Below are positions 12,093 through 61,985 of a stretch of 64,000 nt of DNA, piece by piece (the first letter of the stretch is position 1; every line of letters starts with the position of its first letter). The position numbers were made by a program, and so were the translations under genes. The stretch comes from an uncultured bacterium (GTDB lineage: Bacteria; Patescibacteriota; Patescibacteriia; UBA9570; XYC2-FULL-38-9), in contig CALKUP010000001.1 of assembly GCA_937996685.1 (NCBI GenBank), forward strand, positions 45,322 through 109,321. The letters are read 5' to 3'. The notes beneath the pieces are model-generated. The model searched no databases, had not been told where the DNA came from, and was given only the letters and a program-made list of their open reading frames with translations.

Positions 12093-14348
12093 TTATCGAC
12101 CACGCCGAAATTCATCAGACAGCGCATAAAATACACCGATATCGTCGATGATGTTCAGTGGCTGTAACGGTGGATTCGATGATGGTGTGTTCGATGATGG
12201 TGTGTTCACGTGTGTTGTGTCGAGTTGATCAAAGTCCCATTGTGGTTCTTGAGTCGATTGATGTATATTGCTAGGTGGTTGTGCCTGCTCTGTGCTCGGT
12301 AGTAGTTTGTAATTTTTGAGTACTTGAACGAGGCGTGCAATCCTTTTTCGTTTCAACAAGGCTTGCATTGTGTGATGTTGTTCGATGGTGTTCCAATAGT
12401 TGTAGATGCCAAGCAGTAAAAGGACAAGAAGTAGGATTGCGACAAGAGTTATTTGTATTGGGTGTGCGCGTACGGTATTCCACAAAGAACTGTTCGATTG
12501 AGAATCTTCAGCTGCTTGGTTGCTTGTTGCTGCGCGAAATTTGTTTTGCGCTGCTGTATGCGTTGCCTGGCTCTCAGGCGCACCGACTGTTGCGCTATTT
12601 GCTTGTTCCGTGTCTGCCTGCGCGGATTCTTGCGTGACATCTTGCGCGCTGCGAGGAATGATTTTCCGCACACCGCTGACCTGTTCGACAATTCCGGTCA
12701 CAGAAACACTGCTTCCTTCTTTAAAGTCTTTTGCGCTGACTCCGGCAGAGCTTTTCAGCGCTGCAGAAATTCCGTTTTCTAAATTCCAGGTTGTGCTGGA
12801 TTTGTCGGCAAGGACGCTGCTGGTTTGGACAAGAGTTCCATCGAGTGTTTCGTTGAGTTCGTCAACATTTTTTGGGGCCACCTCCGTTGTTTCTCCGGTG
12901 ATTTGAATGTCGCTGGCCTGGCTGATTTTCACCCGTTTTATACCTCGAGATTCTCCAAGCTCTCCAGAAACCGTTGCCTTGCTTCCAATAGCTAGCTCAG
13001 GAAACAGTTTTGCATATGAATAGATTTGAATGCCGCTGGTTGCGTCTTGCAACATAAAATATTGTGTTCCAAGTTGACCAGGCAGCGCGGTGACAGTTCC
13101 TGAAACGGTTACTTCAGCGCCGTCTTGCAATAGCTTTGCTGCTGCAATGGTTTGTGCAGTGTTTGATTGCAATACGGTTTTTGCTTGTGCGGGTGTAGCA
13201 GTGCTTGGTGTCACGGCTTTTGCAACACCGCCGCCTACCGCTGCTGCTGTTTTTTGTGTGACAACAGATGCCGCGTGGGCACTGTTTGCAGCGCCGGGTG
13301 TCGGGGTTGTTGTCCATGAAAAGCCTGAATGAAATCGAGCGTATGATTGTCCTTCAGCACTCGCAGTGTATTGCACGCTATCAATTGTGCTGCCGAAGGG
13401 GTCAGTAAGGGTAATTGTTTCGCCAGAGTTATTCAGTGAGATTTTCGTTGCGCTTGATTGCAATAACAATAATTCTCCTGCGCCGAGTATCGTGTCTTTT
13501 ATGGTGTAGGTTTTTGCGTCATCGCTCACGCTCCAGTCGCGCAACTGAATATCACTGTCACCGATGTTTGCCAATTCAATCCATTCAGCGTTAGTGTCTG
13601 AGCCGACGGGGTTTGGGAGAAGTTCGTTGATGACAATATCGCTTGATGTTTGTGTTGTTGTTTCTTGTGTGGTTGTTGTTGGGGTAGTGATCTCGGTTGA
13701 AGGAGTATTATTTGTGGGCGCGGTTGTTTCTGTTGTCGCGGCGACTGTGTCTTGCTGCGTGGTTGCTGCTGCAGCTGTAAAAATATTTGCGCTGCCAGCA
13801 GTCGGTGTCGGCGTGAATTCCCAGGTCGTTAATCCGTTTGGTTGCGCAAGGTGTTTTGACCATGACGCTCCGGACAGTGCGGTTTCGTACGTTGTTTGAT
13901 CAAGCGCAACTCCGGAAGCATTAGTTAATACAATCGTGTCGCCGCCGTTGTTTAAAAATATTTTCGTGACGCTAAACGGCAATGCAAGATATGAGTGCGC
14001 TGCGAGTGATGTTGACTCGACCGTGCTTTCTGAAAGCGTGAACGCTTTTCCAGAAGCGTCGGTGAGCGTGAGGTCAGAAATTGAAACAGCAGAATTATTC
14101 GGATTGTAGATTTCAATAAACTCTTCTTGTCCGGTTGTCGGAGCAGGGTAGAGTTCGCTGATTTGAATGGCGGTCGTTGTTTCTGTTGGGATAGCTGCAG
14201 ACTCAGTCGTTATTGGCGGAGTTTGGACAACAGCGCCAGTTGTTTCATCGACATACTGACATTGTAAAATAACAGCGCTGGCAGACGTTGGGATGCATGC
14301 GCCTATAATAATGAAGACTGCGAGCAGTTGCGCGACAGTGCGTTGCAT
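12093..14348 (-). CDS. cell-surface protein with two lamin-tail domains, a Thr-rich linker, an OB-fold-like segment and a C-terminal TM anchor
   Basis: Signal peptide MQRTVAQLLAVFIIIGACIPTSASA. The two LTD motifs are ISELYPAPTTGQEEFIEIYN and INELLPNPVGSDTNAEWIELAN. The linker is Thr-rich (TTETTAPTNNTPSTEITTPTTTTQETTTQT). VSGTVTALPGQLGTQYFMLQDATSGIQIY matches the OB-fold seen in extracellular nucleic-acid-binding proteins. There is a C-terminal TM helix and a cytoplasmic tail containing an NTPSS repeat. Confidence 0.7.
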   Translation of the reverse strand: MQRTVAQLLAVFIIIGACIPTSASAVILQCQYVDETTGAVVQTPPITTESAAIPTETTTAIQISELYPAPTTGQEEFIEIYNPNNSAVSISDLTLTDASGKAFTLSESTVESTSLAAHSYLALPFSVTKIFLNNGGDTIVLTNASGVALDQTTYETALSGASWSKHLAQPNGLTTWEFTPTPTAGSANIFTAAAATTQQDTVAATTETTAPTNNTPSTEITTPTTTTQETTTQTSSDIVINELLPNPVGSDTNAEWIELANIGDSDIQLRDWSVSDDAKTYTIKDTILGAGELLLLQSSATKISLNNSGETITLTDPFGSTIDSVQYTASAEGQSYARFHSGFSWTTTPTPGAANSAHAASVVTQKTAAAVGGGVAKAVTPSTATPAQAKTVLQSNTAQTIAAAKLLQDGAEVTVSGTVTALPGQLGTQYFMLQDATSGIQIYSYAKLFPELAIGSKATVSGELGESRGIKRVKISQASDIQITGETTEVAPKNVDELNETLDGTLVQTSSVLADKSSTTWNLENGISAALKSSAGVSAKDFKEGSSVSVTGIVEQVSGVRKIIPRSAQDVTQESAQADTEQANSATVGAPESQATHTAAQNKFRAATSNQAAEDSQSNSSLWNTVRAHPIQITLVAILLLVLLLLGIYNYWNTIEQHHTMQALLKRKRIARLVQVLKNYKLLPSTEQAQPPSNIHQSTQEPQWDFDQLDTTHVNTPSSNTPSSNPPLQPLNIIDDIGVFYALSDEFRRGR

Positions 14349-14468
14349 AAAAAAATATCCTTCTAGTGCGAGAAGCGCCTGAAGGATGTGTCGGGTCTAT
14401 TGTGCAATACTGTTTCGTGGCTGTCAATTGGTTGACGCTGGCCCGTGATCCATCTATTCTTGCAGATA

Positions 14469-16381
14469 TGTTGAATCATTCTTTTGTTCGTCGTGCGTCA
14501 TTTTTTCTTTCGGTGGTGTTTTTGATATCCGCGATTGCGCGCGTCGGGCTTTTTTGGAAAACAGAAATAGCGAATCAAGTCTTGGTTGGAGCATTAGTGC
14601 TTGGTTTATGCGCGGCGTTAATTGTCGGAAGAAAGCGTCAGATCACGATTCACATGCTACCAACGCTCTACGGCTTTGCGGTTCTTGAATTAGTGAACAC
14701 AGCTCGTGTGTTATGGCCGAGTCTGTTGCCACAAAAGCAGCTTATTGGGATGTTGCTTGGAACAACAGAGTCTGCTGGTATGTTGTCATTTCTTGGGGTG
14801 ACTGCGCTTGTGCTCGGAGTGTCGTACACACTGTCTGATGTTTTTATGCAGGTGTGTACAGGTGCGACGCCTCGCCGGTGGCTGACTGTGTTTCAGCGGC
14901 GCCCATTCTTTTTTGCTTTGCTCTTTTCGTTTGTGCTCACGAGTGTGTATAGCATTGACCTTGCGCTTCGACACGCAGCGTTTACAGCAACGGTCTATGA
15001 CTTCGGGATTTTTGATCAAGCGCTCTATATGCTATCGCGCGGTGCAACGGGTTCAACAACGCGTCAGTTTACAAACATCTTTTTTGACCACCAGCATTTT
15101 TCTTTAGTGCTGCTCACACCACTGTATTGGATCGGACGGGGACTACATGGATACACGCTGCAGATTCTAACGCCATTTTTGTTGATTTTTTTTCCATCTG
15201 TGGTGACTTTTTATATTGCGCAAACATTCGCAGCTCTGCGTGGGCTGGATATTAAAAAACCGTATTGGGTTATTCCGACGACGAGTCTGTTGTTGTGGTT
15301 GCATCCATATACGCAATCCGCGATCGGATTTTATTTTCATGAAAAATACCTCATGCCATTGGTATTCACTGGCTTTTTATATACAGTCGTCTCTTTTGTG
15401 CATGCGCCAACCTGGCGCTGGTTCGCTGGAATGTGCACATTCGCGCTTCTCTGGTCTGGGATAAAAGAAGATCAGTGGTTGTTTGTTTTTGTGTGTGTAT
15501 TGCAGTGCGGTGTTGCGACGTGGTTGCATGCAGGCGTTCGATCAGCCGTGAACCGTTTCCGTGTGCTAGGGGTCTCTGCAGTTGCTGTTGTGCCGCTTGT
15601 GTACGCCGGTTTTTTGAGTTGGTTTCACACCCAATCAACCAATGGCCAATATGTGCATTTGTATTCCCATCTTGGTCTTGCGGCTCGGCAGTGTTTTGTT
15701 GAATTGAATCCAGCAGCGGCGTTGCAGACATTAAAGCTCATGGATGATGTAAACATCTATCAATATCAACATTTATTGACGCTTGATCTATTCGGCGTAA
15801 TTGTCTTTCCGTTGAGTGTGCTCGGCAATTACGCGGAGCGGTTGCTTGCGGAAAGCCCTTCATTAAAAAATCCAATTTTTCATTATGGCGTTGATGTGCC
15901 AATCTATTCTGCTGTTGGGTTTGTGTTGCTTCTGTTGTTATTGCAAAAACATCTGCCCGCTCTATCACGCCGTGTCCATTTTTTTGGTATCACACTCGCA
16001 CTTGTTGGTTTTTCAGCGCTGCTTGGCTGGAACGCTATTTATTATCTCGTGCCAACAATGCAACGCGATGTTGTTCGATTTGTTGAAACTCGGTCAGAGC
16101 GAGTATCTGTTGCAGAGACAGCAAGGCGTATTCCTGCTGACGCATCGCTTGTGGTGTCTGATGGTTGGGCGACGCATTTCACGGCCCGCACGTCTGTTGC
16201 GCAATGGCCAGAAGTCTTGCAATTACCAGAAGGCACGCCTGGCAAAAATGCTCTCGCTACTTTTGATTATTGGCTTTTGCGTAGAAGTGACGCAACGACC
16301 GCGGCGCAAGTGCAGTTGCTGGTCGATTCAGGATATCAAATTATCGAAGAAACTGAATTTGCTTTTCTTGTGCAGCGATAG
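14469..16381 (+). CDS. DUF2079-family polytopic membrane protein, GT-C-like
   Basis: Many TM segments and the motif YDFGIFDQALYMLSRG that I associate with DUF2079. The start is uncertain; the track ORF begins at GTG 14366 and the first ATG in frame is at 14469. Confidence 0.6.
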
Positions 16382-27314: not shown

Positions 27315-27326
27315 TTATCGATCTAA

Positions 27327-31579: not shown

Positions 31580-31705
31580 AGTATATATTATTGTAACACA
31601 CTGTACAGCACTTTTTCCGTACACACAATATTGTTTTCTTTGGTAAATCCCGCTAGGATGAATAAACACACTGAATCAATAGTGTGCTCATTCCAAGGAC
31701 AAAGC

Positions 31706-35871: not shown

Positions 35872-35928
35872 GTAAAAAAATGATGATCTTATTGCTTTTT
35901 TACCATATTTTCGGCAGTATAACAATGA

Positions 35929-43614: not shown

Positions 43615-43678
43615 AATCGTTTGATTGTTTGTCTTTTCTGTGGTATAATACAGTCTCCAATTGAGATAATCTATTTTT

Positions 43679-44545
43679 ATGGTAACAACTGCTGTTATTC
43701 CAGTCGCAGGTCTCGGTACTCGTTTCTTGCCGCAAACAAAATCTGTCCCAAAAGAGTTGCTTCCCGTCGTTGATAAGCCAGTTATTCAGTATATTGTTGA
43801 AGAGGCGGTTGCGAGTGGTTTAACAAACATTATTTTTGTATTGTCCCCAGATAAAGAGGCGATTCGCGGCCACTTTTTTGAAAATGTAAAATTACAAGAT
43901 GAGTTAGTCAAAAAAGGAAAGCATACAGAACTCGCAACAATTTCTTCTTTGCATTCAATGGCAACGTTTCATTATGCAATTCAAGAAGAGCCACGTGGAC
44001 TTGGTGATGCGATTTTGAAAGCTCGTCCATTTATTCCAGAAGGTGAGGCGTGTGTTGTGTTTGGTGGTGATGATATTGTAGAAGGTGATGTGCCAGCAGC
44101 AAAACAGCTGATGGATGTGTATGAGCAATATCACGCGCCAGTCATTGGTGTAACAAATGTTGCAAAAGAAGATGTGGTTCGATATGGGATCATTGATCCA
44201 AAAGAATCATTAGACAATGCAGTGTTTTCATTGGATACCATCGTTGAAAAACCAGCTGTTGCAGATGCTCCGTCAACGCTTGGGGTTGGTGGTCGTTGGT
44301 TGATTACCGCTGATGTCCTTGATGAACTTGCGCGGACTCCAGAAGATGCGAGTGGTGAAATTCAAATCACAAAAGCTTTACAAACATTGGCTGAAACACA
44401 AACATTGTACGCAAAACAATATGAGGGTGTCTATCGTGATTGTGGAAATAAAATTGAGTATTTGAAAACGGTTATTACTTTTGCGTTAAAAAATCCAGAG
44501 ACACGTGATCAAATCGCTTCTTATATTCGACAACTTGATATATAA
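43679..44545 (+). CDS. galU: UTP--glucose-1-phosphate uridylyltransferase
   Basis: AVIPVAGLGTRFLPQTKSVPKELLPVVDKPVIQYIVEEA is the GalU signature. Confidence 0.85.
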   Translation: MVTTAVIPVAGLGTRFLPQTKSVPKELLPVVDKPVIQYIVEEAVASGLTNIIFVLSPDKEAIRGHFFENVKLQDELVKKGKHTELATISSLHSMATFHYAIQEEPRGLGDAILKARPFIPEGEACVVFGGDDIVEGDVPAAKQLMDVYEQYHAPVIGVTNVAKEDVVRYGIIDPKESLDNAVFSLDTIVEKPAVADAPSTLGVGGRWLITADVLDELARTPEDASGEIQITKALQTLAETQTLYAKQYEGVYRDCGNKIEYLKTVITFALKNPETRDQIASYIRQLDI

Positions 44546-44552
44546 TTATTTC

Positions 44553-45941
44553 ATGAAACGCTTTCGAGCATTGCTTACTCACACTCGGTCACGCGCCGCG
44601 CTGCTTGCTGTTATTTTGTTGTCGACACTTTCTTTGTCTGGCGCAAGTTGTGGCGGCACAGCGCTAACTGCCCCAGACCCGGTTGTATTAAAAGTATGGC
44701 GCTCAGAAGACAGTCAAGAAAATTTCCAAGCAGCAATGACTGCGTACACTGCGCAGTATCCACATGTGTCGTTTGAATATCGCGTCTTTCAACCAGAGGA
44801 GTATGAAGCGGCGCTGCTGTCTGCCTGGGCAAAGGGAGAGGGGCCGGACATTTTTTCTATTCCAAATAATGAAGTTGGCAATTTTCAGCAGTACATTGCG
44901 CCGATGCCAAAAAATGCATCATTTGCATATTCGTATACAAAAAAATCATTTGGCCGCACACAAACTGTCGTTGCGCAGCGTGATGTGACATTTTTAGTTC
45001 CGTCACAAATTCGTGATCAGTTTGCTCCAGCGGTTGGTTCTGATGTGATCATTGATAATGCTGTATATGGTTTGCCATATGCGCTTGATACAATGGTGTT
45101 GTATTACAACCGCGACATGCTTTCAAAAGCGCAGGTAGCTGTTCCGCCCGCAACCTGGGAAGACTATCGAAATGCCGTGCAAACAATCACACGTCGTGAT
45201 GAACAAAAAAATATTTTGCAAGCCGGGGGTTCAATTGGCACAGCCAATAATGTCCCGTATTTTTTCGATATTATTTCAGCGATCATGATGCAAAATGGCA
45301 CACAAATGGTGACGCCGTCTGGTCAAGTTGCCTTTGCTGAGGAGGTTAATGGAAATTTACGTGGTGCGGAAACAGTTGATTTTTACACAAAGTTTGCCAA
45401 TCCAGAGTGGCAAACGTACACATGGAATGCAACAGAGCCTGATAGTCGTTCAGCATTTATTGACGGCCGGACTGCCTTATTTTTTGGCTACGGACGTGAT
45501 CAAAAACGCATTCAACAACAAGCGCCAAATTTAAATTTTTCTTATAGCGCTTTACCGCAAATTGATTTGAATAATCGTGTTGATTATGCGTCCTACATGG
45601 TTGAAGTAGTGCATCTTGGATCAAAAAATCCAGAACATGCGTGGAATTTTATTCAAACAATCGCAACAACAGACCAAGGAAAAGTGTTTGCGGATGCAAT
45701 TGGCAGAACGCCAGCTCGTTTAGTTGATATTGCTGCGTTAAAAGATGATCCAGATCGTGGTGTCTTTGCAAAATCAGCACTGACTGCTCGAACGTGGTAT
45801 CACGGACAAGATTCTGGAGCGGCGGTCGCAGCGTTTAAGGAGTTGGTGGAAAATGTGCTTGCAAAAACCGGAACTGTTCAAGATTTAGTGAATATTGCCG
45901 CGCAAAAAGTCGCGCTTTCATGGCAAGCAAAAACAGAATAA
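44553..45941 (+). CDS. ABC-transporter extracellular solute-binding protein, family 1 sugar-type, probable lipoprotein
   Basis: Signal peptide with a Cys-containing lipobox-like LSGASCGG. The family 1 SBP pattern is present. No cognate permease or ATPase is adjacent. Confidence 0.65.
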   Translation: MKRFRALLTHTRSRAALLAVILLSTLSLSGASCGGTALTAPDPVVLKVWRSEDSQENFQAAMTAYTAQYPHVSFEYRVFQPEEYEAALLSAWAKGEGPDIFSIPNNEVGNFQQYIAPMPKNASFAYSYTKKSFGRTQTVVAQRDVTFLVPSQIRDQFAPAVGSDVIIDNAVYGLPYALDTMVLYYNRDMLSKAQVAVPPATWEDYRNAVQTITRRDEQKNILQAGGSIGTANNVPYFFDIISAIMMQNGTQMVTPSGQVAFAEEVNGNLRGAETVDFYTKFANPEWQTYTWNATEPDSRSAFIDGRTALFFGYGRDQKRIQQQAPNLNFSYSALPQIDLNNRVDYASYMVEVVHLGSKNPEHAWNFIQTIATTDQGKVFADAIGRTPARLVDIAALKDDPDRGVFAKSALTARTWYHGQDSGAAVAAFKELVENVLAKTGTVQDLVNIAAQKVALSWQAKTE

Positions 45942-45945
45942 GTAT

Positions 45946-46980
45946 ATGAATAGGATTACTCGCTCATTGTTCTCTGTCCGCCTTCTTTCGCTGGCGCTAT
46001 TAGGGTTTGTAAGTCTTGCTGTATTTACACCAAGTGTTGCATATGCAGATCAGGAAAGTGATTGTATTTCAAGTTGTGAGTCTGCATTTCCATCTGCGAC
46101 ATATACTCCTGACCCAGGAGATCCAAGAACGCCTCAGCAACAGGCAAGTTACGATAATTACCACACGTGTGTGAATGCGTGCATTGACCAATTTGGAGAT
46201 CAAGCACAGGCCGCTGCAGACGCGAATCAGGCAGCTGCAGACGCCGCTGCGGCTGCGGCTGATGCATTAGGAAATGCCGCTGCAGACGGCGGCAATACAA
46301 CAACTGGCAATGGCGCGACAACACCAACTGTGACAAATCCAACAGGAGGAACTACGCCGTCAGGTAAAGTGACGAATCCTGGAGCAACTGCTGACAGGGC
46401 GTTGCCAACTCTTTTGCCAGAATGTGCAACAACAACCGGTTCTTGTGGAATTTGTGATGTATTTGCAATGTTTGGAAATATCGCTGAAATTTTACTCGAT
46501 CTTATTTCTGGAGTTGTTATTTTAATGGTGATTGTTGGTGGGTTCTTCTGGATTAGTTCTGCCGGGAGTTCTGATCGTATTGATCGTGGAAAGCAGATTT
46601 TGATCGGCGCATTTATGGGCTCTATCTTTGTGTTTGCTGGTTTTGTACTTGTAAATCTCACAATGATCGCGTTGCTGGGCGGCTCTGGAAAAGCTGGGAA
46701 CTATGGAATTGTATCGCCGTTTGGTAATACGGAATGGAACAAGATATGCTCTGAAACCTCTGCGGTTGTACCACCTGCCGTTAATAACACGGCGACCGGG
46801 CAAAATCCAGCCCCAGCTCCGGTGCCGGTACCAGCTGGGTCTACATGTTATATTTTAGCCTCAGGTGGAGATGGTCGGCCATGTAAAGAGTCCACGTGCA
46901 ATGACGTGAATACATGTGTGTGTAAAGGAGTTCTTGACCCATCCTCTGGTTCAACGAGTTATTCTTGTGTGGCAAAATAA
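45946..46980 (+). CDS. long Cys-rich paralog of the TrbC/VirB2-like pilin family
   Basis: Signal-anchor segment. The extracellular regions are Cys-rich (CISSCES...CVNACIDQF and a C-terminal CNDVNTCVCKG). The central core LISGVVILMVIVGGFFWISSAGSSDRIDRGKQILIGAFMGSIFVFAGFVL aligns with the four short paralogs downstream. Confidence 0.6.
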   Translation: MNRITRSLFSVRLLSLALLGFVSLAVFTPSVAYADQESDCISSCESAFPSATYTPDPGDPRTPQQQASYDNYHTCVNACIDQFGDQAQAAADANQAAADAAAAAADALGNAAADGGNTTTGNGATTPTVTNPTGGTTPSGKVTNPGATADRALPTLLPECATTTGSCGICDVFAMFGNIAEILLDLISGVVILMVIVGGFFWISSAGSSDRIDRGKQILIGAFMGSIFVFAGFVLVNLTMIALLGGSGKAGNYGIVSPFGNTEWNKICSETSAVVPPAVNNTATGQNPAPAPVPVPAGSTCYILASGGDGRPCKESTCNDVNTCVCKGVLDPSSGSTSYSCVAK

Positions 46981-47057
46981 AAACAAGCACCTTTTGTTCT
47001 GTAAAATTTAGTCAAAAATAGCATGACATTGCAGCATGTCGTAATGATTGATATAGT

Positions 47058-47435
47058 ATGCATATGAAAAAATATTTTCGTTTTATCGCAATTGGAGCTG
47101 CGGTGTTCTTGCCGGTAATGGTGCAAGCAGCAACAAACACAGCTTCATTAATCAACCCAATTGGCGGTTCAACAACCAGTCCAAACGGCGTGACTGATCC
47201 AAATGTGTTGATCGCAAACATCATTCGGTCTGTATTGGGCGTTGTTGCAGTAATCGCACTGGTGGTGATTATTTACGGCGGTGTTGAAATGTTGATTTCA
47301 GCGGGAAATGAAGAGCGCGTGAAACGTGGTCGCGATTCATTGATGTGGGCGTTTATTGGTTTATTGATTGTTTTTGGAAGTTACGCGATTATCCGAGCAG
47401 CGTTCCAGGTATTAGGAGGAGAGACAATTACATAA
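47058..47435 (+). CDS. TrbC/VirB2-like pilin-family small membrane protein, paralog 1
   Basis: Signal peptide (VQA-ATNT), then two TM helices joined by the conserved loop ISAGNEERVKRG; 125 aa. Confidence 0.65.
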   Translation: MHMKKYFRFIAIGAAVFLPVMVQAATNTASLINPIGGSTTSPNGVTDPNVLIANIIRSVLGVVAVIALVVIIYGGVEMLISAGNEERVKRGRDSLMWAFIGLLIVFGSYAIIRAAFQVLGGETIT

Positions 47436-47454
47436 ATACCATGTTTGCAGTATT

Positions 47455-47486
47455 AAAAAAACTCTTGGAAATCCCAAGAGTTTTTT
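47455..47486. terminator. bidirectional rho-independent terminator
   Basis: Perfect hairpin ctcttgg-aaatc-ccaagag flanked by A7 upstream and T6 downstream, between convergent pilin genes. Confidence 0.75.
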
Positions 47487-47503
47487 GTAGTATACGTAAG
47501 TTT

Positions 47504-47857
47504 TTAAATAAATTGACCAAAGAGCAATAAGATGCTGAAAGAAGAGAAAATGATAATAAGGCCAATAATTGCCCATAGCAAAATTTGTCGACCAGTTTTA
47601 ATTTTGTCTTCGTTGCCAGCAGATGTCAGGATAGTAAACCCAGCGTAAATAATGAGCACTAACGCAACAACAGCAAGAACGCCGAGGCCGCTTTTAATGA
47701 TATTAAAAATATAATCAAGCAAACTTGTTTTTGGGAGTCCTGCGCCAGAAGCAACTCTGCCACCTGGGTCAAAGTATTGGGATGGTGATTGCGCAAGGGC
47801 TTGCACTGGGCTGCCGAGAGCAAGAGCGCCGAGGACGAGAAAAAAGGCATTTTTCAT
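47504..47857 (-). CDS. TrbC/VirB2-like pilin-family small membrane protein, paralog 2
   Basis: Start MKNAFFLVLGALALGSPVQALA is a signal peptide. Core is FTILTSAGNEDKIKTGRQILLWAIIGLIIIF. Confidence 0.65.
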   Translation of the reverse strand: MKNAFFLVLGALALGSPVQALAQSPSQYFDPGGRVASGAGLPKTSLLDYIFNIIKSGLGVLAVVALVLIIYAGFTILTSAGNEDKIKTGRQILLWAIIGLIIIFSSFSILLLFGQFI

Positions 47858-47874
47858 AGAAATAGCGTATGTCA

Positions 47875-48258
47875 TTATTGTGCGCCAGAGCCAGTTGCGC
47901 TGCCGATAGTGCCGAATAAATAGAGTGTGATTCCCCATGAAGCAAGAACAATCACAAGGCCAATTGCCGCAGCTGCGAGTGTGCTCTTTGCGGTTTTGAT
48001 TTTGTCTTCATTACCAGCGGCGGTCATCCATGTAAACCCAGCCCATAAAAATAATCCTAATGCAACAAGTGCCAAAAAGCTGAGCGCAACGTTCAAGACG
48101 TTGCCGACAATTGTTGTTGGACTATTTGTTCCAAGTCCAGTTTTTCCAATATCTGCTTCTAAGGTAGAGCTGATAAATGGAGCAGCAAAGGTTTTTGTTG
48201 GAAGGGTTGTGACAAGTAATCCGCCTACTGCGTACAAAAGATTTTTTATTTTCATCAT
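47875..48258 (-). CDS. TrbC/VirB2-like pilin-family small membrane protein, paralog 3
   Basis: Signal peptide ...TKTFA-APF. Core is FTWMTAAGNEDKIKTAKSTLAAAAIGLVIVLASWGI. It lies 17 nt upstream of paralog 2 on the same strand. Confidence 0.65.
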   Translation of the reverse strand: MMKIKNLLYAVGGLLVTTLPTKTFAAPFISSTLEADIGKTGLGTNSPTTIVGNVLNVALSFLALVALGLFLWAGFTWMTAAGNEDKIKTAKSTLAAAAIGLVIVLASWGITLYLFGTIGSATGSGAQ

Positions 48259-48350
48259 ATGAAAAGAATTATATTTAGACGTTCAATTTATAAAATCCTA
48301 ACATAAAGGACTCTTTGCGTCTATTCTGTTCCTGTTATGTTGTAGAGTGT

Positions 48351-48379
48351 TTGGCAAAAGATTCGTCTCGTGCTATTCT
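48351..48379 (+). promoter_or_regulatory. putative sigma70-like promoter of pilin paralog 4, in a divergent intergenic region
   Basis: TTGGCA, a 17-nt spacer, then TATTCT, about 35 nt upstream of a strong SD (aaaggaggtg) and the ATG at 48415. Confidence 0.45.
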
Positions 48380-48414
48380 GCAAGTACATATTATTCCAGA
48401 AAGGAGGTGACGAC

Positions 48415-48792
48415 ATGAAGAAACTCGCACGATTATTATCATCATTTGGTTTCACAGCGATGGGCTTGCTTGCTGCAAATCCCGTTTCTGCGCAATTGAA
48501 GACCAGCTTTTCAGGTTCTGAAGTTCCAGCACTTGGAACTCGAACTCCACAAGCGATCATCGGACAAGTAATCAACGTAGCGCTTGGTTTCTTGGCATTC
48601 GTTGCTGTTATCCTTATCCTATATGGTGGTTTTTTGTGGATGACTGCTGCCGGAAATGAAGATCGCGTTGAACAAGCGAAGAAATTATTAACAGCCGCTA
48701 TTATCGGTTTGGTAATTATTTTAGCTGCTTGGGGAATTTCCCTGTACGCTATTGGTACTCTTGCAACCGCTACTGGAACATCTGTCAAATAA
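48415..48792 (+). CDS. TrbC/VirB2-like pilin-family small membrane protein, paralog 4
   Basis: Strong SD. Signal peptide ...ANPVSA-QLK. Core is FLWMTAAGNEDRVEQAKKLLTAAIIGLVIILAAWGI. Confidence 0.7.
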   Translation: MKKLARLLSSFGFTAMGLLAANPVSAQLKTSFSGSEVPALGTRTPQAIIGQVINVALGFLAFVAVILILYGGFLWMTAAGNEDRVEQAKKLLTAAIIGLVIILAAWGISLYAIGTLATATGTSVK

Positions 48793-48810
48793 AAAACAGA
48801 CCAGTCAAAA

Positions 48811-48840
48811 AGGCGTCCGTTTATCGGGCGTCTTTTTTTT
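48811..48840 (+). terminator. probable terminator after pilin paralog 4
   Basis: Imperfect hairpin ggcgtccg...cgggcgtc followed by T8. Confidence 0.45.
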
Positions 48841-48869
48841 ATTCCGATTGTTTGGTATTCTCTACAAGA

Positions 48870-50936
48870 ATGAAAGCTATACATCGTTTACGATTTTTTT
48901 TGTTACAAGACTTTTTGTCTGTCCCGCGCCTGCTATGGTTCTGGATGATTGGAGTCTGCTGTGTTGTGATTGGAATCTGCGTCGTATCGTATACGCAATT
49001 TCAATATGCAGGCCTTGATCTTGGAATTTACAATCAAGTTCTATGGAATACAGCGCATGGTCGTTTATTTGAGTTTACATTTAATGAATCATCATATCTT
49101 GTTGATCACCGTGAATGGTTGTTGATTTTGTTGACGCCGATCTACTGGGTTGTAAATCAACCGCTTGTGTTGGTGGTAATTCAGTCAGTGATTGTGAACA
49201 GCGTTGTGATTCCGATGTATTTGCTTGCGCGAACAGTCTTTGACGGAATGGTGCCGCATCCAAAAAAAGCTGCGCTATTTGTTGCGGCAGCGGTATTATT
49301 GCATCCAACAATCTTAAATATGCAGCTGTTTGAGTTTCATGTCCTTGCGCTCACAGCACCGCTCGCTGTCTGGTGGTGGTATGGCATTGTGACGCAGCGC
49401 CGCTTTCGTTGGGTCTTTTTTATCATCCTGCTACTCATGCGTGAAGATGTTGCTATTACAACTGCTGGCGTCGGTGTGCTGCTGTATATAACAGAACAAA
49501 AACGTTGGAAGGAAGCGGCGGTGATTGTGATCGCGAGTGTTATGTGGTTTGCAGCGATGGTTTGGGCTGGAGGGTATTTTTCCGTTGAAGATAATCCATT
49601 ATTTTTCTCGTTGTATTCATGGATGGGAACCACGCCACTCAACGTGCTTCAGTACATGGCGCTGCATCCGCTGGCTGTGTTGCGACATGTGTTATCGGCT
49701 GGGAATATATTTTTGTTTTTATTATTTTTAATGAGCACGGCCTTTTTGCCGCTCCTTGCATTTCGTCGTTTGTTTCCGGCACTGCTCGGTTTGAGTGTCT
49801 ATTTTTTCATGGGCAGTATTAAAATTGGCATGGATATTTTTCTGTATCATTACGGAGTATTGATTACAATTTGGACATGTATCGCCGCGCTCTATGGATA
49901 CAGAAGATTATTTGATGATACAAAAAAATGGAAAGTGCCATTTTTTACACAGAAGGACATGCATTATTTTGCGGCGCCAATCGTGATGGTCGTATTGTTT
50001 TCAACCTGGGTATTTTTTGGGCTTCATTGGGCATTGCTTGATATTGTAAAACTGCATTCAGAAGATCGCAGTGGTTTGCGGGCGGTGATGCAAGATATTC
50101 CAGCAGACGCTTCGGTAATGGCGTCTGATCGAGTGTATCCATATCTTTCAAGTCGACAATTTTTGTATTCAACAAAATATATCAATAGCGGGTTAAAGCA
50201 CTATTCATCTCTTGCGTATCAATTTCGCTCCTTTGATTGGCTGGTGATGACTGATGAAGTGGCGCGGATGCAAAACGGTAGTTCAATTCAAACAAAAGCG
50301 AACTCGGTTAAGCGCTTGCGATACCAGTTGCAAAAAAACGCGCTTGTGCCAGTCCGCCTTTTTGAGCAAGGCGTGTTGTATGGACCGGCTGCTGCAGCAC
50401 CTGCTCCGTCAGAGCCTGTGCGGTCTGCCGTTGGTTTTGTGTCGCAGGTTCATGCAAATCAACGGGTGCATCCGACGGCACGCTTGGATGGATATACGTA
50501 TGATGATGCAACGCGTCAATTTTCTCTCCAACTGACACGTATGAACGATGATCAGGCGATAGCGTTTCGGGCTGATCATGAAGATGATCAAGAGCTCTTT
50601 GTTCGGGTGTTGTGGCACACGCGTTATGGTCTGCCAGCATCAACGCAATATCGATTGCTCGGTAGCGCAACAGATCCAATGTATCTCTGGGGGAATGACG
50701 AGTCGCGGGTTATGCAGCTGCCATGGATTTTTCCAGAAGGAGCAACGGATGTTCGGTTAGAATTTGGTAGTTTGTATTTACCGCCGCAGCACCTTGCTGT
50801 CACTCAAACAATGCCGCTTATGCGAAAGCCATTGCCGCTTGAATATACTGACGTTACGCCAATAGTGGCTGTTGATGAGCGTTGTAAAATCACCCCTACT
50901 CAAGAGCTTGGTTCTTGTAGCGTAAACACGAAATAG
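48870..50936 (+). CDS. DUF2079-family polytopic membrane protein, GT-C-like, paralog of the 14469..16381 gene
   Basis: Same motif class (AGLDLGIYNQVLWNTAHGRLFE) and multi-TM architecture as the gene at 14469..16381. Start is at the internal ATG (MKAIHRL). Confidence 0.6.
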   Translation: MKAIHRLRFFLLQDFLSVPRLLWFWMIGVCCVVIGICVVSYTQFQYAGLDLGIYNQVLWNTAHGRLFEFTFNESSYLVDHREWLLILLTPIYWVVNQPLVLVVIQSVIVNSVVIPMYLLARTVFDGMVPHPKKAALFVAAAVLLHPTILNMQLFEFHVLALTAPLAVWWWYGIVTQRRFRWVFFIILLLMREDVAITTAGVGVLLYITEQKRWKEAAVIVIASVMWFAAMVWAGGYFSVEDNPLFFSLYSWMGTTPLNVLQYMALHPLAVLRHVLSAGNIFLFLLFLMSTAFLPLLAFRRLFPALLGLSVYFFMGSIKIGMDIFLYHYGVLITIWTCIAALYGYRRLFDDTKKWKVPFFTQKDMHYFAAPIVMVVLFSTWVFFGLHWALLDIVKLHSEDRSGLRAVMQDIPADASVMASDRVYPYLSSRQFLYSTKYINSGLKHYSSLAYQFRSFDWLVMTDEVARMQNGSSIQTKANSVKRLRYQLQKNALVPVRLFEQGVLYGPAAAAPAPSEPVRSAVGFVSQVHANQRVHPTARLDGYTYDDATRQFSLQLTRMNDDQAIAFRADHEDDQELFVRVLWHTRYGLPASTQYRLLGSATDPMYLWGNDESRVMQLPWIFPEGATDVRLEFGSLYLPPQHLAVTQTMPLMRKPLPLEYTDVTPIVAVDERCKITPTQELGSCSVNTK

Positions 50937-52522
50937 TCGCTGTCTGCAAAAATTTCAATAAATCGCGGGTCAGCTTTGATGAGTCGAAGCATTCCGTTGT
51001 TTGATGTCTCGACAATTACGGCTTTTGCATGAAAGTCATCGCGAATGTGTTCGAAGACGTTGTCTTTTTGTGTGCCAAGCGTGATGTCATGCCAGAGCCA
51101 GTAGCGCGCTGGATCTTGGTGGTAGAGAAATGTTGGATCCAGTCCGACGATGTAGTGGTTTTGCCGATTCCAATAAAACAATTGCGGGAACATATCCCAG
51201 TCACTGTGAAACACAATATCACCAGGTTGTGTGTGCGCGGCAATCGCTTGAGAGGCTGCTTTTGTATCTGAGTAGACAAATCCAGATTGCAGATCAGCGT
51301 GAACATTTGTGATGTTTTGGATGCCGATGATTGCAATCAGTAAGATAGAAAGAATTGCAATTGCTCCATGGTTTGCGTATAGAATGACTGATTTTGGTGT
51401 TTGGATATATCGAGTCATTCGTTGTTCGATGGTTTCTAGGAATATCGATAACGATGCTCTGTGTGTGGATTCGTTGCGAACGGTGTCTCGGAGTAGAAAA
51501 GCACCACTGATAACCGCCCATGGAATCAGGTATTCAATGTATCGCTGAGATTTCAATGTAAATACCAGTAAAATGGAGCTGTACAAGAATAGTCCAATTG
51601 TTTCTCCAGATAGTCGTTTATAGCGCGTGAGTGCAAATATGCTACTGAGTAGCCAGGGGATCAGGACAATACTGTCTCGTAGTAACATGTTCGAAACAGC
51701 AATCGGATACCACTCTCTGCCGACGCCAATAACGTCTTGTGCGTTTAAGATACCGATCACAATCAGTTGTTGCCAGATGAGTGCAAAATGATCAGGGAAT
51801 GACGGATGGATCAGTAGTCCGCTGGCTGTGCCGATGAGAATAATGCCGAATGCTTTGAGGAGTGAGATTGCTTGTGTACGACGTTCCGTTGTTCGATTAA
51901 TAAGCCACGCGCCAGCGCCGCCAAGGGACAAGCATGCAGCAAGGAGTGGGAGGACGATAAATCCGCCGTAACTCCAGACAAAGAAAAAGCTCACAAGCAG
52001 TAAAAAGCGATGCCAACGTGGCTGCAGAAGCAGCATGACGCTGACAATTAAAAAGAGTGCGCTTGTGCTTGGAGCTTTGACGAGCCCCATGCGAAATAAA
52101 AAGCTGCTTGAAAGCAGCAAGGCAAGTATCCAGAGTTCTGAAAATGGCGCTTTGTTTTTTACGAGCAATGCATAGATGCCGACAATAACAAGGCTCGCTA
52201 AAATAATTGTCAGAATTTTTGCACCAAGAAATGGAGGCAAAAGCGTGACAAAGGGAATCAGTAAAACGTGATAGAGAAAATGATGGTCGGTGTAGTGTGT
52301 GCCGAGAGAGGTGTATGGTAGCCAAGAAAATGTGTGCGGAATATTGTGTGTGTCCCGAATTATTTCGGCCATTGCGATATGGTAGAAGGAGTCTGGGTCA
52401 GTAAAGCGTTCGCTATTGAGCGACCAGCTGTACAACGCAACACTGAGGCAAAATAGCAAAAGCCCAATAAGCAGTCGAGGAGCAAGATGTGAGTGGCGTT
52501 GATGCCAGGGAGTCTGCGTCAT
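50900..52522 (-). CDS. GT-C-fold-like polytopic membrane protein (putative glycosyltransferase)
   Basis: About 13 N-terminal TM helices plus a C-terminal soluble domain. The acidic loop motif FTDPDSFYH in the first extracytoplasmic loop is reminiscent of ArnT/PMT-type GT-C enzymes. The assignment is inferential. Confidence 0.45.
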   Translation of the reverse strand: MTQTPWHQRHSHLAPRLLIGLLLFCLSVALYSWSLNSERFTDPDSFYHIAMAEIIRDTHNIPHTFSWLPYTSLGTHYTDHHFLYHVLLIPFVTLLPPFLGAKILTIILASLVIVGIYALLVKNKAPFSELWILALLLSSSFLFRMGLVKAPSTSALFLIVSVMLLLQPRWHRFLLLVSFFFVWSYGGFIVLPLLAACLSLGGAGAWLINRTTERRTQAISLLKAFGIILIGTASGLLIHPSFPDHFALIWQQLIVIGILNAQDVIGVGREWYPIAVSNMLLRDSIVLIPWLLSSIFALTRYKRLSGETIGLFLYSSILLVFTLKSQRYIEYLIPWAVISGAFLLRDTVRNESTHRASLSIFLETIEQRMTRYIQTPKSVILYANHGAIAILSILLIAIIGIQNITNVHADLQSGFVYSDTKAASQAIAAHTQPGDIVFHSDWDMFPQLFYWNRQNHYIVGLDPTFLYHQDPARYWLWHDITLGTQKDNVFEHIRDDFHAKAVIVETSNNGMLRLIKADPRFIEIFADSDYFVFTLQEPSS

Positions 52523-53440: not shown

Positions 53441-53944
53441 ATGAAAATTCTTGGCATCGACCCCGGCCTTCATCGTGTCGGAATTGCGGTTGCTGATATT
53501 ACCGCTGGTCGCTACCAGCTTATTCAATGTGGTGTGATTACGACGCCATCTGAATTATCGCTTTCTGTGCGGTTAGTGCAGCTCCGTGATGATCTGACTG
53601 CATTTATCGCGCAACATCCGGATATTGCAGTGTGCGGCATTGAAGAATTGTTTTTTTCAAAAAACGTGACAACCGCTCCAATGGTCTATCAAGCGCGTGG
53701 GGTTATTTTGGAGTTGCTGGAACGCGTTGGTGTGCAATCGGTTATTTCGGTGAAGCCCCAGCATGTCAAACAATATGTCACAGGATCAGGCAGTGCTGAT
53801 AAGCGCGAGGTGCAAGAAATGGTGCGACATACGTTTCATTTGGATGCTGTACCGAAGCCGGATGATGCGGCTGATGCGGCGGCGATTGCGATTGCTGCAG
53901 AGGCGATATTTCGAAGCCAAGGGCACCAAAAAAACGCGTCATAG
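53441..53944 (+). CDS. ruvC: crossover junction endodeoxyribonuclease RuvC
   Basis: MKILGIDPGLHRVGIAVADI plus the catalytic acidic residues; 167 aa. Confidence 0.85.
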   Translation: MKILGIDPGLHRVGIAVADITAGRYQLIQCGVITTPSELSLSVRLVQLRDDLTAFIAQHPDIAVCGIEELFFSKNVTTAPMVYQARGVILELLERVGVQSVISVKPQHVKQYVTGSGSADKREVQEMVRHTFHLDAVPKPDDAADAAAIAIAAEAIFRSQGHQKNAS

Positions 53945-53950
53945 ACTCTT

Positions 53951-53979
53951 GATTTTTTGCTCCGTTTGTGGTATATTGA
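53951..53979 (+). promoter_or_regulatory. putative sigma70-like promoter of the inserted 7TM/ATP-grasp module
   Basis: TTGATT, a 17-nt spacer, then TATATT, immediately after the ruvC stop and about 18 nt upstream of the ATG at 53997. Confidence 0.5.
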
Positions 53980-53996
53980 GTAGGAATAATTTTCCT

Positions 53997-55571
53997 ATGA
54001 AACACTTTTTTCTTTTTAGCGTTTTGTGTGCAACGCTGACGCTGTTTGCGCCACACATTACGTTTGCTCAAGATGTCACGGCAGATCAAGCAGCTCCTGA
54101 GCCACTGGTGGTAAACGCAGGAACAGACGCGGCAGTTGTTGCTGGTCGATCTGTTCGTTTGGCGGCAACTGGCTCCACAAAGCCGGTGAATGTCGAAAAC
54201 CCGGAAATCGTGTACACCTGGGATTTTGGCGACGGATCAACCGATTCTGGGTTTGAAGTAAACCATGTTTATAAAGAAAGTGGTCGATATCGTGCCGTTG
54301 TCACAGGCAAGCGAATCGCAAACGGTGCGAGCGAAGAGATGTCTGATAGTGTTGAAGTGATTGTTCAAGACCGTTTGGCGTTATTAATTGTTGATAAAAC
54401 AATTTCAGCTGAACAAATTGCGCAATTGAAAAATTATGGCGCAACACAAGGGACGCTTGTGAGTGTTATTCAATCTGCCGGCGCGCCGCAAGAATCAGCA
54501 ATGGTGCAAGAACTCGCGCAAGAATTGTTGAAAGCGGAAGATGATGTGCGTTTGGCAAATGTTATTATTACATGGACATCTGGCAATACAGGTATTAACA
54601 CGTTGATTGAGTTGTCTCGTATTTTGGCGTTAAACGGAACGCCGTCAGATCAATACAATTTTGAAGACAAGGCGATTGTGAGTATTTCGGACAATCAGCC
54701 AATTTCAACAAGTGCTCGTTTAGCACAAAATGTGTTTCAAGGGTTGAACCCGGGCTTCATTGTCGTTGCTGATCGTGTGGTGATGAATCCGGCGATTAAA
54801 GCGGAATCTCCAACACAATTGGAAGAAGCGTTGCGATATAGTGATGCACAATATCAAATCATCACTCCATACACCGCGCGTGGCATCGGAAAGTTGTCGC
54901 CGGCAAACTTCTTGTCATTCACAATGAATTACATGGTGAATAACGGAGTTCCGGTTAATTCCTTGTATTTGATTCTCATGCTTCCAGTGCTAGCGACGAT
55001 TGTTGCGGCAACTCGCCAATTGGTTGGTATTAAAGCCTTTGGTATTTTTGTCCCAACCGTGCTTGCGTTGTCGTTTCTTGGAACTGGATTGAAATATGGT
55101 CTGACGATTTTTGTGAGTCTTGTGATTTTGGGTTCGATTGCGCGTCTGCTGGCTCGCAAATTGAAAATCGCCTATTTACCACGCATGGCAATTGTAATTT
55201 CTTTGCTTGCGTTTTGTATTTTCACAATGTTTTTTGTTGGCGCGCTGTTTAACAAAACAGGCTTTATCGCAGTGTCAGTGTTCCCAATTTTGATCATGAC
55301 TGTGATTACTGAGCATTTTATTACCGAGCAAATTGAGCAAGGCTGGAAAAGTGCAATGAAGCTCTCGATTGAGACATTGATTTTGGCATTGATTGGTTTC
55401 TCAATTGCTGATTGGACATGGTTCAAAAGTGTTGTCTTGGCATTCCCGGAATTGATCTTGCTCACTTTTGTCATTAATTATGGTATTGGTAAATTTACTG
55501 GTTTGCGTTTGACTGAATATATCCGATTCCGTCACGTCTTTAAACATATCCGCAATGCTGAAAAGTCTTAA
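53997..55571 (+). CDS. secreted PKD-domain protein with a C-terminal 7-TM domain (7TM component of a RimK-like ATP-grasp/retropepsin system)
   Basis: Signal peptide MKHFFLFSVLCATLTLFAPHITFA. PKD-like segment YTWDFGDGSTDSGFEVNHVYKESGRYRAVV. An extracellular region of about 250 aa follows, then seven hydrophobic helices in the last ~250 aa. The stop overlaps the next gene. Confidence 0.65.
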   Translation: MKHFFLFSVLCATLTLFAPHITFAQDVTADQAAPEPLVVNAGTDAAVVAGRSVRLAATGSTKPVNVENPEIVYTWDFGDGSTDSGFEVNHVYKESGRYRAVVTGKRIANGASEEMSDSVEVIVQDRLALLIVDKTISAEQIAQLKNYGATQGTLVSVIQSAGAPQESAMVQELAQELLKAEDDVRLANVIITWTSGNTGINTLIELSRILALNGTPSDQYNFEDKAIVSISDNQPISTSARLAQNVFQGLNPGFIVVADRVVMNPAIKAESPTQLEEALRYSDAQYQIITPYTARGIGKLSPANFLSFTMNYMVNNGVPVNSLYLILMLPVLATIVAATRQLVGIKAFGIFVPTVLALSFLGTGLKYGLTIFVSLVILGSIARLLARKLKIAYLPRMAIVISLLAFCIFTMFFVGALFNKTGFIAVSVFPILIMTVITEHFITEQIEQGWKSAMKLSIETLILALIGFSIADWTWFKSVVLAFPELILLTFVINYGIGKFTGLRLTEYIRFRHVFKHIRNAEKS

Positions 55572-57065: not shown

Positions 57066-57650
57066 ATGATTGCATTTTTAACGGGAACGATTCATTCCAT
57101 TGATGAATTGAGTATTATTTTATTGGTCAACGGGATCGGATATCGCGTCTATTGTCCGTCAACAACAATCAGTGATATTCACCTTGGTGAAAACATTGAG
57201 TTGTATATCCATCACCATATTCGTGATGATGCGCAAGAGTTATTTGGTGTGCGCGGGCAAGACGAGCATCAATTTTTACAATTAGTATTAAAAGTGTCTG
57301 GCGTTGGTCCAAAAATGGCCTTAACAATGTTGTCGCAATTCACTCCGGCGCAGCTGTATAATGCGGTGATGAGCCAAGATGTCGCGCTATTAACGAGTAT
57401 TTCTGGTATCGGTAAAAAAACAGCAGAGCGGATTGTTTTAGAGTTAAAGGATTCAACCGTGGCAATTTTTTCTGCAGGGACAGCGCCAGCTGCCGCGGTT
57501 GTGCCAAGTGCTGATTCGCTTGTTGTGTCTGCGTTGCAAGGACTTGGGTATCAACAGCAAGAAATTCAAGAAGTGCTTGCGCGGATCGATACAACTCTTG
57601 AACCAGAAGAGCAAATTCGTGCTGCCTTATCAGTATTCGCGCGATCATGA
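57066..57650 (+). CDS. ruvA: Holliday junction DNA helicase subunit RuvA
   Basis: MIAFLTGTIHSIDELSIILLVNGIGYRVYCP, HhH motifs (SGVGPKMAL, SGIGKKTAERI) and a C-terminal domain III; 194 aa. Confidence 0.85.
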   Translation: MIAFLTGTIHSIDELSIILLVNGIGYRVYCPSTTISDIHLGENIELYIHHHIRDDAQELFGVRGQDEHQFLQLVLKVSGVGPKMALTMLSQFTPAQLYNAVMSQDVALLTSISGIGKKTAERIVLELKDSTVAIFSAGTAPAAAVVPSADSLVVSALQGLGYQQQEIQEVLARIDTTLEPEEQIRAALSVFARS

Positions 57651-58720: not shown

Positions 58721-58724
58721 ACGT

Positions 58725-61754: not shown

Positions 61755-61985
61755 ATGCCAAAAACACCAGCCAAAAAAGGAGTCAAAAAAACCAGCGATG
61801 ATTTTCATATTGGAAAAGAAATGGAGGCACTGGAGCAAGCGATTGACGCGATTGAAAGTGAAGACGGTGATATTGATGCGTCTATTGAGCAGCTGACAAT
61901 TGCAATGGAAAAAGCCAAGCTCATTCGTGCGCATTTGAAACAAGCGCAATTACGAGTTGATGAATTAACAAGTAGTGATCTATGA
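61755..61985 (+). CDS. xseB: exodeoxyribonuclease VII small subunit
   Basis: FHIGKEMEALEQAIDAIESEDGDIDASIEQLTIAMEKAKLIRAHLKQAQLRVDEL is a typical XseB coiled coil; 76 aa. Confidence 0.85.
   Translation: MPKTPAKKGVKKTSDDFHIGKEMEALEQAIDAIESEDGDIDASIEQLTIAMEKAKLIRAHLKQAQLRVDELTSSDL

Follow-up and report, generated by a model that had tools for sequence, protein, structure and literature searches.

The 64,000-nucleotide stretch analyzed here (the window; positions 45,322 to 109,321 of contig CALKUP010000001.1) belongs to an uncultured, ultra-small, Kerfeldbacteria-like bacterium of the Patescibacteriota and carries, at positions 43679-52522, a locus of nine genes: a GalU-type enzyme, a sugar-type solute-binding protein (SBP), five pilin-like proteins, a DUF2079 membrane enzyme and, convergent with the latter, a second membrane enzyme of 540 amino acids. 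With a probability of roughly 0.5, this locus would correspond to a cell-surface module that is conserved within the ABY1-class lineage of Patescibacteria (Kerfeldbacteria and relatives) and in which glycosyltransferases of the GT-C type decorate exported proteins. The arrangement is conserved across the class and both membrane enzymes present a sugar-transferase fold, so that a surface-decoration module is probable; most likely, exported surface components are decorated on the outer face of the membrane. A preliminary description of this DNA, which had already suggested surface glycosylation, placed all nine genes correctly.

Gene order in relatives

The plus-strand unit of the locus opens with a GalU-type UTP-glucose-1-phosphate uridylyltransferase of 288 amino acids (43679..44545), preceded by a promoter-like site at 43621-43649 that is a consensus match only. 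The protein matches TIGR01099 with an E-value of 1.2e-82 and 277.4 bits, below the cutoff of this model (326.8) and about 100 bits above the next-best model. It also matches NTP_transferase (PF00483, 1.9e-26) and contains the signature GLGTRFLP.TK..PKELLP. The following gene encodes the SBP, a probable lipoprotein of 462 amino acids (44553..45941, plus strand), whose open reading frame (ORF) opens at 44505, the ATG at 44553 being the likely start. Matches to SBP_bac_8 (1.2e-25) and SBP_bac_1 (1.7e-17) are observed, and its best solved relatives are maltose-, maltodextrin- and sugar-binding proteins. No ABC permease or ATPase partner was found among the large ORFs scanned in the 64-kb window, which is also the scope of the negatives given below for VirB4 and GT2 enzymes. 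The SBP is an orphan within the window, in agreement with the preliminary description.

Relatives of the 540-aa protein are encoded in 362 stretches retrieved by a scan of species-representative genomes, and the counts of gene order and of intervening genes given here correspond to the best 80 of these, in which ORFs were called and searched with the window proteins. The exact sequence of the 540-aa protein of the window is not on record, according to an exact-protein look-up, and the homologues that carry names are assigned to Candidatus Kerfeldbacteria or to "Patescibacteria group bacterium". The labels of the best 80 loci comprise Kerfeld-, Falkow-, Buchanan-, Kuenen- and Uhrbacteria, "Patescibacteria group bacterium" and "Candidatus Parcubacteria". 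The exceptions are one Vicinamibacterales bin, one Candidatus Microgenomatus and a group of TPA assemblies that bear the title "uncultured Gammaproteobacteria".

A comparison of these loci shows that the SBP adjoins a pilin-like gene in 33 out of 33, that GalU adjoins the SBP in 19 out of 23, and that DUF2079 lies less than 1 kb from a pilin-like gene in 37 out of 39. The complete arrays (n = 28) hold two to nine pilin-like genes, and 21 of them are wholly on the strand of DUF2079 and the SBP. The distance to the 540-aa gene was evaluated in the 56 loci with at least 9 kb of sequence downstream of this gene, and the module is at most 10 kb away in 42 of them. The tightly linked unit is GalU-SBP-pilins-DUF2079, and the 540-aa gene is linked more loosely. 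This order is kept at 30-40% protein identity among ABY1-class Patescibacteria, which answers favorably the conservation check proposed in the preliminary description; the arrangement is far beyond chance and recurs in dozens of species-level genomes. Only the closest relatives retain the other flanking genes (7TM-transglutaminase/ATP-grasp, RlmH and a GRAM-like gene), so the persistence of the module is more than general synteny. A second synteny search, in metagenomes, was anchored on DUF2079 by means of an alignment of close relatives and recovered the full cluster in the four closest loci (at least 30% identity).

In the relatives in which the 540-aa gene and DUF2079 stand apart, the genes between them lie on the strand of the 540-aa gene. 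The most frequent (51 loci) encodes a second Pfam-less polytopic family of 540 aa, which matches the first only over about 190 C-terminal columns (hhalign, 97.3%), followed by a GT87-like GT-C enzyme in 34 loci. A 415-aa membrane protein and a SAM methyltransferase are encoded in 18 and 17 loci, respectively, and PMT_2 GT-C genes form two clusters (13 and 6 loci). Moreover, GT2 enzymes of several subfamilies, of the lipid-sugar-synthase type, are present in about 30 of the 80 loci, and in 50 loci the gene immediately upstream of the 540-aa gene encodes phosphoglucose isomerase (PGI). Searches of the window for GT2, GT87, PMT_2, the second 540-aa family and PGI found none of them. Based on the gap-gene content and the upstream PGI, the wider locus can be described as a glycosylation island of two convergent units, each opening with a sugar-phosphate enzyme.

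The two membrane enzymes

The DUF2079 enzyme (48870..50936, plus strand; 688 aa) and the 540-aa enzyme (50900..52522, minus strand) are encoded by convergent genes whose 3' ends overlap by 37 bp. The preliminary description proposed that both are GT-C enzymes and named a transporter fold as the outcome that would speak against it. The fold search favors GT-C for both proteins, and the transporter reading was rejected.

An AlphaFold2 model of the 540-aa protein, built with 73 homologues, has a mean pLDDT of 94.5. The modeled chain has 13 membrane helices, its first outer loop is long, and an alpha/beta domain lies outside at the C terminus. Its polytopic core is superposable on solved GT-C enzymes. 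In a Foldseek search, the top nine matches are STT3 structures (E-values from 3e-10 to 5e-9, TM 0.58-0.68), with ArnT ranked 22nd and Pmt 26th, and the closest solved folds are those of the protein-modifying STT3, AglB, Pmt4 and DPY19. Thus, the 13 helices and the acidic motif FTDPDSFYH noted in the preliminary description stand, and as regards its ArnT/PMT-like reading, the fold is nearer to STT3, AglB and DPY19 than to ArnT or PMT.

The motif FTDPDSFYH corresponds to residues 40-48, and D42, P43, D44, Y47 and H48 are invariant in the alignment of the 73 homologues. In GT-C enzymes the catalytic acid lies just after helix 1, and in this family D42 and D44 sit 8-10 residues past helix 1 (residues 13-34), in the first outer loop. 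Further invariant residues are H81, Y84, H85, R144, K149, E270, W271, R327 and E330, together with W442, D443 and G460-L461-D462-T464-F465 in the C-terminal region. The family motif H439-S-D-W442-D443-x-F445-P446 places the W-D pair behind a beta-strand and some 30 residues beyond helix 13, which we take to be the place where oligosaccharyltransferases have WWDYG; this positional equivalence comes from the order of secondary structure in the model, not from a superposition.

The 540-aa protein has no Pfam or NCBIfam family, and none of the 73 members matches Pfam PMT (PF02366), PMT_2 (PF13231) or STT3 (PF02516), the last one even at E <= 1. Searches against PDB sequences gave no match with the single sequence and none with the family profile at E <= 10, and hhalign detected no relation between the 540-aa family and DUF2079. 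The literal WWDYG motif is absent from the family. Given the lack of this motif, of Pfam STT3, PMT and PMT_2 matches and of a PDB profile match, the protein is not classifiable as an oligosaccharyltransferase; by the architecture of its model, it would be a GT-C enzyme of the STT3/AglB type.

A comparison with STT3, AglB and PglB (GT66) shows a common layout of 13 helices, with the N terminus on the inner side and a globular domain outside at the C-terminal end. Further points in common are an acidic D-x-D opening the first outer loop and an invariant W-D (HSDWDxFP) past the last helix. However, besides the missing sequence-level relation and the missing literal WWDYG, the loop expected to hold the second acidic motif contains the invariant Arg144 and Lys149 (a place judged from the helix order of the model). 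Moreover, the C-terminal domain is much smaller, of about 125 aa, and of a type common to the neighboring family, which is not oligosaccharyltransferase-like (the 97.3% hhalign match given above). On the other hand, some features of the 540-aa enzyme recall the ArnT/PMT/PMT_2 enzymes (GT83, GT39): its size is close to that of ArnT, NCBI labels one database homologue (P0045) "ArnT family glycosyltransferase", and conserved basic residues occupy places that might accommodate a monophosphate donor. Unlike these, the family has no PMT or PMT_2 Pfam match and low Foldseek ranks for such structures, and true PMT_2 genes, with PMT_2 matches of 1.4e-09 and 2e-14, stand separately in the loci of relatives.

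For the DUF2079 enzyme, PF09852 is matched at 5e-50 and 171.3 bits (cutoff 28.2) within an ORF spanning 48729-50936; the start is most likely at 48870, because this methionine is an invariant column in an alignment with six relatives. A terminator-like hairpin with a 13-bp stem followed by a T run (48807..48837, plus strand; consensus scan only) lies between the last pilin-like gene and DUF2079. Its predicted structure has a GT-C fold with a conserved acidic residue after helix 1, and a beta-sandwich domain lies outside at the C terminus. In a diverse DUF2079 alignment H80 is invariant and D50 nearly so, and E192 is invariant among close relatives. Outside the pilin-linked lineage, DUF2079 genes often occur in two or three close copies, several of them in tandem (metagenome loci L094, L106, L122 and L134).

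Taken from their modeled structures, the 540-aa protein and DUF2079 are predicted GT-C glycosyltransferases, and both would act on the outer face of the membrane with polyprenyl-phosphate-linked sugar donors, as expected from the GT-C fold. In the literature searched, DUF2079 is not mentioned, and the co-mention of Patescibacteria and oligosaccharyltransferase concerns archaeal pili only.

The VirB2/TrbC-like array and candidate acceptors

Five pilin-like genes lie between the SBP and DUF2079. The first encodes a large protein of about 344 aa (45946..46980, plus strand; 361-aa ORF). It is followed by four small ones: a 125-aa protein (47058..47435, plus strand; PF18895 1.2e-09, NF045849 7.6e-09), a protein from a 144-aa ORF with its likely start at 47875 or 47857 (47504..47938, minus strand; PF18895 2.5e-06, NF045849 1.4e-10, above the NF045849 cutoff), a 127-aa protein (47875..48258, minus strand; PF18895 9.8e-11), and a protein adjoining DUF2079 of 125 aa from the ATG (48415..48792, plus strand; ORF opening at 48370; PF18895 2e-11, NF045849 6.7e-12). 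In the subclade of the window, two or three pilin-like genes are inverted with respect to the rest of the array (47504-48258 in the window; also L001, L003-L008, L086 and L087), and in most other lineages the pilin-like genes are all on one strand.

Four of the five proteins pass the gathering score of PF18895 T4SS_pilin (26.6 bits), with 38.5, 27.9, 42.0 and 44.2 bits, and two of the small proteins are above the cutoff of the NCBIfam Mbov_0395-family pilin-like conjugal transfer model, the other two being just below it. The 361-aa ORF gives a PF18895 match of 15 bits over residues 195-254, below the cutoff; its positional orthologues in relatives pass it with 30.4 and 36.5 bits. All five have a signal peptide and two hydrophobic helices with a lysine-rich loop between them (AGNE[DE]K-type). 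From the PF18895 and NCBIfam matches, the scores of the orthologues and this layout, the five proteins are assigned by sequence as VirB2/TrbC-type pilin homologues of type IV secretion systems (T4SS). The type IV (PilA-like) pilin reading was rejected, since there are PF18895/TrbC matches and ordinary Sec-type signal peptides and no type IV pilin family is matched. The pilin-like genes of the preliminary description are therefore all present, although their type is VirB2/TrbC (PF18895) and not type IV.

VirB2-like pilin arrays have already been described in Patescibacteria, with 441 arrays of 2-11 genes, one of which is reported as essential in Ca. Southlakia epibionticum (PMC12102498). The present array resembles them in its PF18895 family and in its tandem, divergent paralogs, some on opposite strands. 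However, those arrays are described as T4SS components, and the T4SS loci of ABY1 are reported with comF, recG and radA (PMC12102498), whereas the array of the window is not near virB4, no match to the VirB4 family being found among the large ORFs scanned in the window, and arrays of this type are constantly flanked by GalU, the SBP and a GT-C enzyme. Also, no VirB4/VirB6 assembly gene cluster recurs within ±10 kb in the 80 loci of relatives. A term search of PMC12102498 gives no "solute-binding" and a single "glycos" match, which is unrelated (glycosidases), so the GalU/SBP/GT-C context is apparently undescribed there. The VirB2-like arrays of ABY1 considered here thus sit in a context unlike the virB4-linked arrays described so far.

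The lysine-rich loop between both helices (AGNEDKIKTAK) would be cytoplasmic by the positive-inside rule, and for this reason both termini of the VirB2-like proteins are predicted to face outward. Their tails are rich in Thr, Gly and Ser. In the product of 48415-48792, the predicted exposed C-terminal tail is IGTLATATGTSVK and the C-terminal peptide is ...GTLATATGTSVK. For this DUF2079-proximal paralog, 38 of 45 relatives have Thr or Ser at tail position 8, in 17 of these within N-x-T/S. This position is often found within T-x-N-V-T in relatives (L009-L077), and the copy of the window, ending in ...ATATGTSVK, has no sequon. The large VirB2-like protein has a signal peptide, an outer region that is first Cys-rich and then Ala/Gly/Thr-rich, the two-helix core and a Cys-rich C-terminal outer region; its Thr-rich linker contains two sequons. 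In relatives, the large SBP-adjacent paralogs carry long outer extensions, with PG_binding_1 (peptidoglycan-binding) in two of them.

Glycosylation of pilins by the enzyme of an adjacent gene has precedents in TfpW of Pseudomonas aeruginosa, a GT-C arabinosyltransferase, and in the PilO/PglL O-oligosaccharyltransferases, which modify exposed Ser/Thr residues of type IV pilins. As in these systems, a membrane glycosyltransferase gene stands beside a gene for a filament-subunit-type protein; unlike them, the proteins of the window are of the VirB2 type, and we know of no glycosylated VirB2-type pilin.

Proposed role and alternative explanations

For the surface-decoration module, the following scheme is proposed. 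The first unit would comprise GalU, the sugar-type SBP lipoprotein, the Sec-exported hairpin proteins of the VirB2/TrbC-like kind (a large one and several small ones) and DUF2079, and the second, convergent one would end in the Pfam-less GT-C enzyme. GalU would supply UDP-glucose, a GT2 enzyme (encoded within the locus in many relatives, and elsewhere or missing in the genome of the window) would load the sugar onto a lipid carrier, and the GT-C enzymes would decorate exported proteins. Within the VirB2-like array, the likeliest acceptors would be the outward termini, rich in Ser/Thr/Gly, and the Thr-rich linker of the large protein.

The scheme of a GT2 enzyme, a flippase and a GT-C enzyme is established for outer-face glycosylation (PMC11127046). 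With three-component systems of this kind (GtrA/B/V, CsbB/YfhO), the locus shares a GT-C gene beside a sugar-nucleotide supply gene and, in about 30 relatives, a GT2 gene between both GT-C genes. It differs from them in that the window locus is without GT2 and flippase genes, several GT-C families are combined, and the locus is joined to a VirB2-like array and an SBP. A DedA/VTT-domain protein is encoded at 30941-31669 (minus strand), 12 kb from the locus. The DedA/VTT family is implicated in the recycling of undecaprenyl phosphate, a need of any GT-C pathway.

Several observations weigh against the proposed decoration of exported proteins. We infer the pilin-like proteins as acceptors, and N-x-S/T sequons are absent from the four small VirB2-like proteins of the window. 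Of all 166 tails, 42 contain a sequon, compared with a shuffle mean of 29.8 (sd 4.0), and at least 1 of 1000 shuffles reached 43, so that the excess is modest. Because of this modest enrichment, and because the small pilins of the window have none, a strict N-glycosylation reading was not adopted. Regarding the locus itself, the module directly adjoins the 540-aa gene in only 9 of the 56 loci, the arrangement of the window being of this type, and this gene is more constantly linked to PGI and to YebC-RuvC on its opposite side (60 of 63 loci). Neither a GT2 lipid-sugar synthase nor a dedicated flippase was found in the window. The association is also narrow: 60 remoter DUF2079 loci from metagenomes have no adjacent array, one of them with a single pilin-like ORF about 4 kb away, and three DUF2079 genes of other lineages have unrelated neighbors, except for one (Anaerolineae) beside PMT_2. 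Hence, the pilin linkage characterizes one DUF2079 subfamily in one lineage. Finally, GalU, PGI and the maltodextrin-type SBP could represent plain carbohydrate metabolism, with glycogen synthase, GH57 and GH15 as neighbors in many relatives. The surface-glycosylation reading of the preliminary description is thus sustained in its GT-C folds and conserved order, but its acceptor is one we propose from context, and the window contains neither the GT2 nor the flippase gene of such a pathway.

The alternative that survives best, which we consider rather unlikely, is that the GT-C enzymes build or decorate an envelope glycoconjugate other than protein (a lipoglycan, a wall polysaccharide or a teichoic-acid-like polymer), the VirB2 array and the SBP being neighbors merely as envelope functions. 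This would fit with the LCP (LytR_cpsA_psr) wall-polymer ligase, FemAB and DedA/VTT genes in the window, with the peptidoglycan-binding domain of some large pilin-like neighbors and with the DUF2079 genes of other phyla, which are without pilin context. Nonetheless, the adjacency of DUF2079 and pilin-like genes (37/39 loci) and their common strand (21/28 arrays) are tighter than envelope co-location requires, and the nearest solved folds of the 540-aa enzyme (STT3, AglB, Pmt4 and DPY19) modify proteins. In the window, the FemAB-family, CofD-like and LytR_cpsA_psr genes are located at 57647-59657 and 62960-63778, 5-11 kb downstream of the locus, and bear on this wall-glycopolymer alternative.

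It is improbable, in turn, that three independent functions are held together by inherited order in small, slowly rearranging genomes, namely sugar metabolism and uptake (GalU, SBP and PGI), a VirB2 array of a T4SS encoded elsewhere and housekeeping GT-C enzymes. The 0-9 kb of variable content that part the 540-aa gene from the module, with YebC-RuvC on its far side, are in line with such independence, as is the description of VirB2 arrays in Patescibacteria as T4SS components (PMC12102498). The same holds for the alpha-glucan genes that many relatives have near the locus (L002-L079, 2.5-5 kb past YebC-RuvC), namely a GT5 glycogen/starch synthase, a family judged GH57-like by sequence and a GH15 glucoamylase. 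In such a neighborhood, the presence of GalU, PGI and the maltodextrin-type SBP could be accounted for with no role in glycosylation. However, GalU-SBP-pilins-DUF2079 stays contiguous at about 30% identity while the other flanks are lost outside the closest relatives, the variable insert itself consists of glycosylation genes, and the SBP has no transporter partner in the window. In the weakest alternative, the SBP would form with the VirB2-like proteins a surface device that recognizes sugars, acting either as a lectin-like adhesin on a fiber of the VirB2 type or as a scavenger of host glycans, and the GT-C enzymes would only mature or protect it. This reading agrees with the constant position of the SBP beside the large pilin-like gene (33/33), its oligosaccharide-binding type, the missing permease and ATPase in the window and the variable outer domains of the large pilin-like proteins, yet it is very doubtful, being without precedent and with no VirB4/VirB6 genes in the window or within ±10 kb in relatives.

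Returning to the decoration of exported proteins, a more specific version, which we regard as a long shot, would have the 540-aa enzyme as a minimal oligosaccharyltransferase-like protein glycosyltransferase that, together with the pilin-linked DUF2079 enzyme, glycosylates the exposed C-terminal tails of the VirB2-type proteins at the conserved Thr/Ser, or at Asn in the N-x-T lineages. The result would be a glycosylated surface fiber carrying the sugar-binding SBP. This organelle would be specific to Patescibacteria, would serve in scavenging or in contact with the host, and would be assembled at a distance from the genes of the T4SS ATPase. The host attachment and episymbiotic lifestyle evoked in the preliminary description are something that we only infer. 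Still, that the tiny genomes of Patescibacteria keep the module across a class-level clade suggests that it is probably important for contact with the host or for the envelope. Should the link be functional, one DUF2079 subfamily and a Pfam-less GT-C family resembling STT3 would gain a first role and context, and VirB2-type proteins may be modified in these organisms. In such a case, the peptides to target in metaproteomes would include the Thr-rich linker of the large paralog and the C-terminal tail of the paralog that adjoins DUF2079.

Outside the locus, the second DUF2079 paralog noted in the preliminary description is real (14468..16381, plus strand; PF09852 1.6e-11, 44.4 bits), except that its start was given as 14469 and the frame opens at 14468 or 14366. 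As a metagenome query it found no relatives. It lies beside a divergent gene for a 751-aa surface protein (12093..14348, minus strand) with LTD domains (PF00932, 5.8e-33, two stretches) and a low-complexity stretch, in which a weak Endomucin match covers residues 488-650. The paralog may likewise decorate this neighboring Thr-rich LTD protein.

Downstream of the locus, a PKD-7TM_transglut fusion precedes a "sugar-transfer associated" ATP-grasp that carries a fused Zn-protease-like domain, with a second ATP-grasp beyond (53763-57054 and 61982-62938); the PKD-7TM_transglut/ATP-grasp pair is beside RuvC only in the closest relatives (e.g., L001-L007, L052 and L071). An 867-aa ORF at 33505-36108 (minus strand) has no Pfam match. 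The window also contains 23S and 5S rRNA genes (24090-27315) and no 16S gene in its 64 kb (unlinked rRNA genes). Just upstream of the rRNA genes, the adenylosuccinate synthetase gene (22038-23441) lies in a 2-kb stretch of 57% GC, compared with roughly 42-50% elsewhere in the window.

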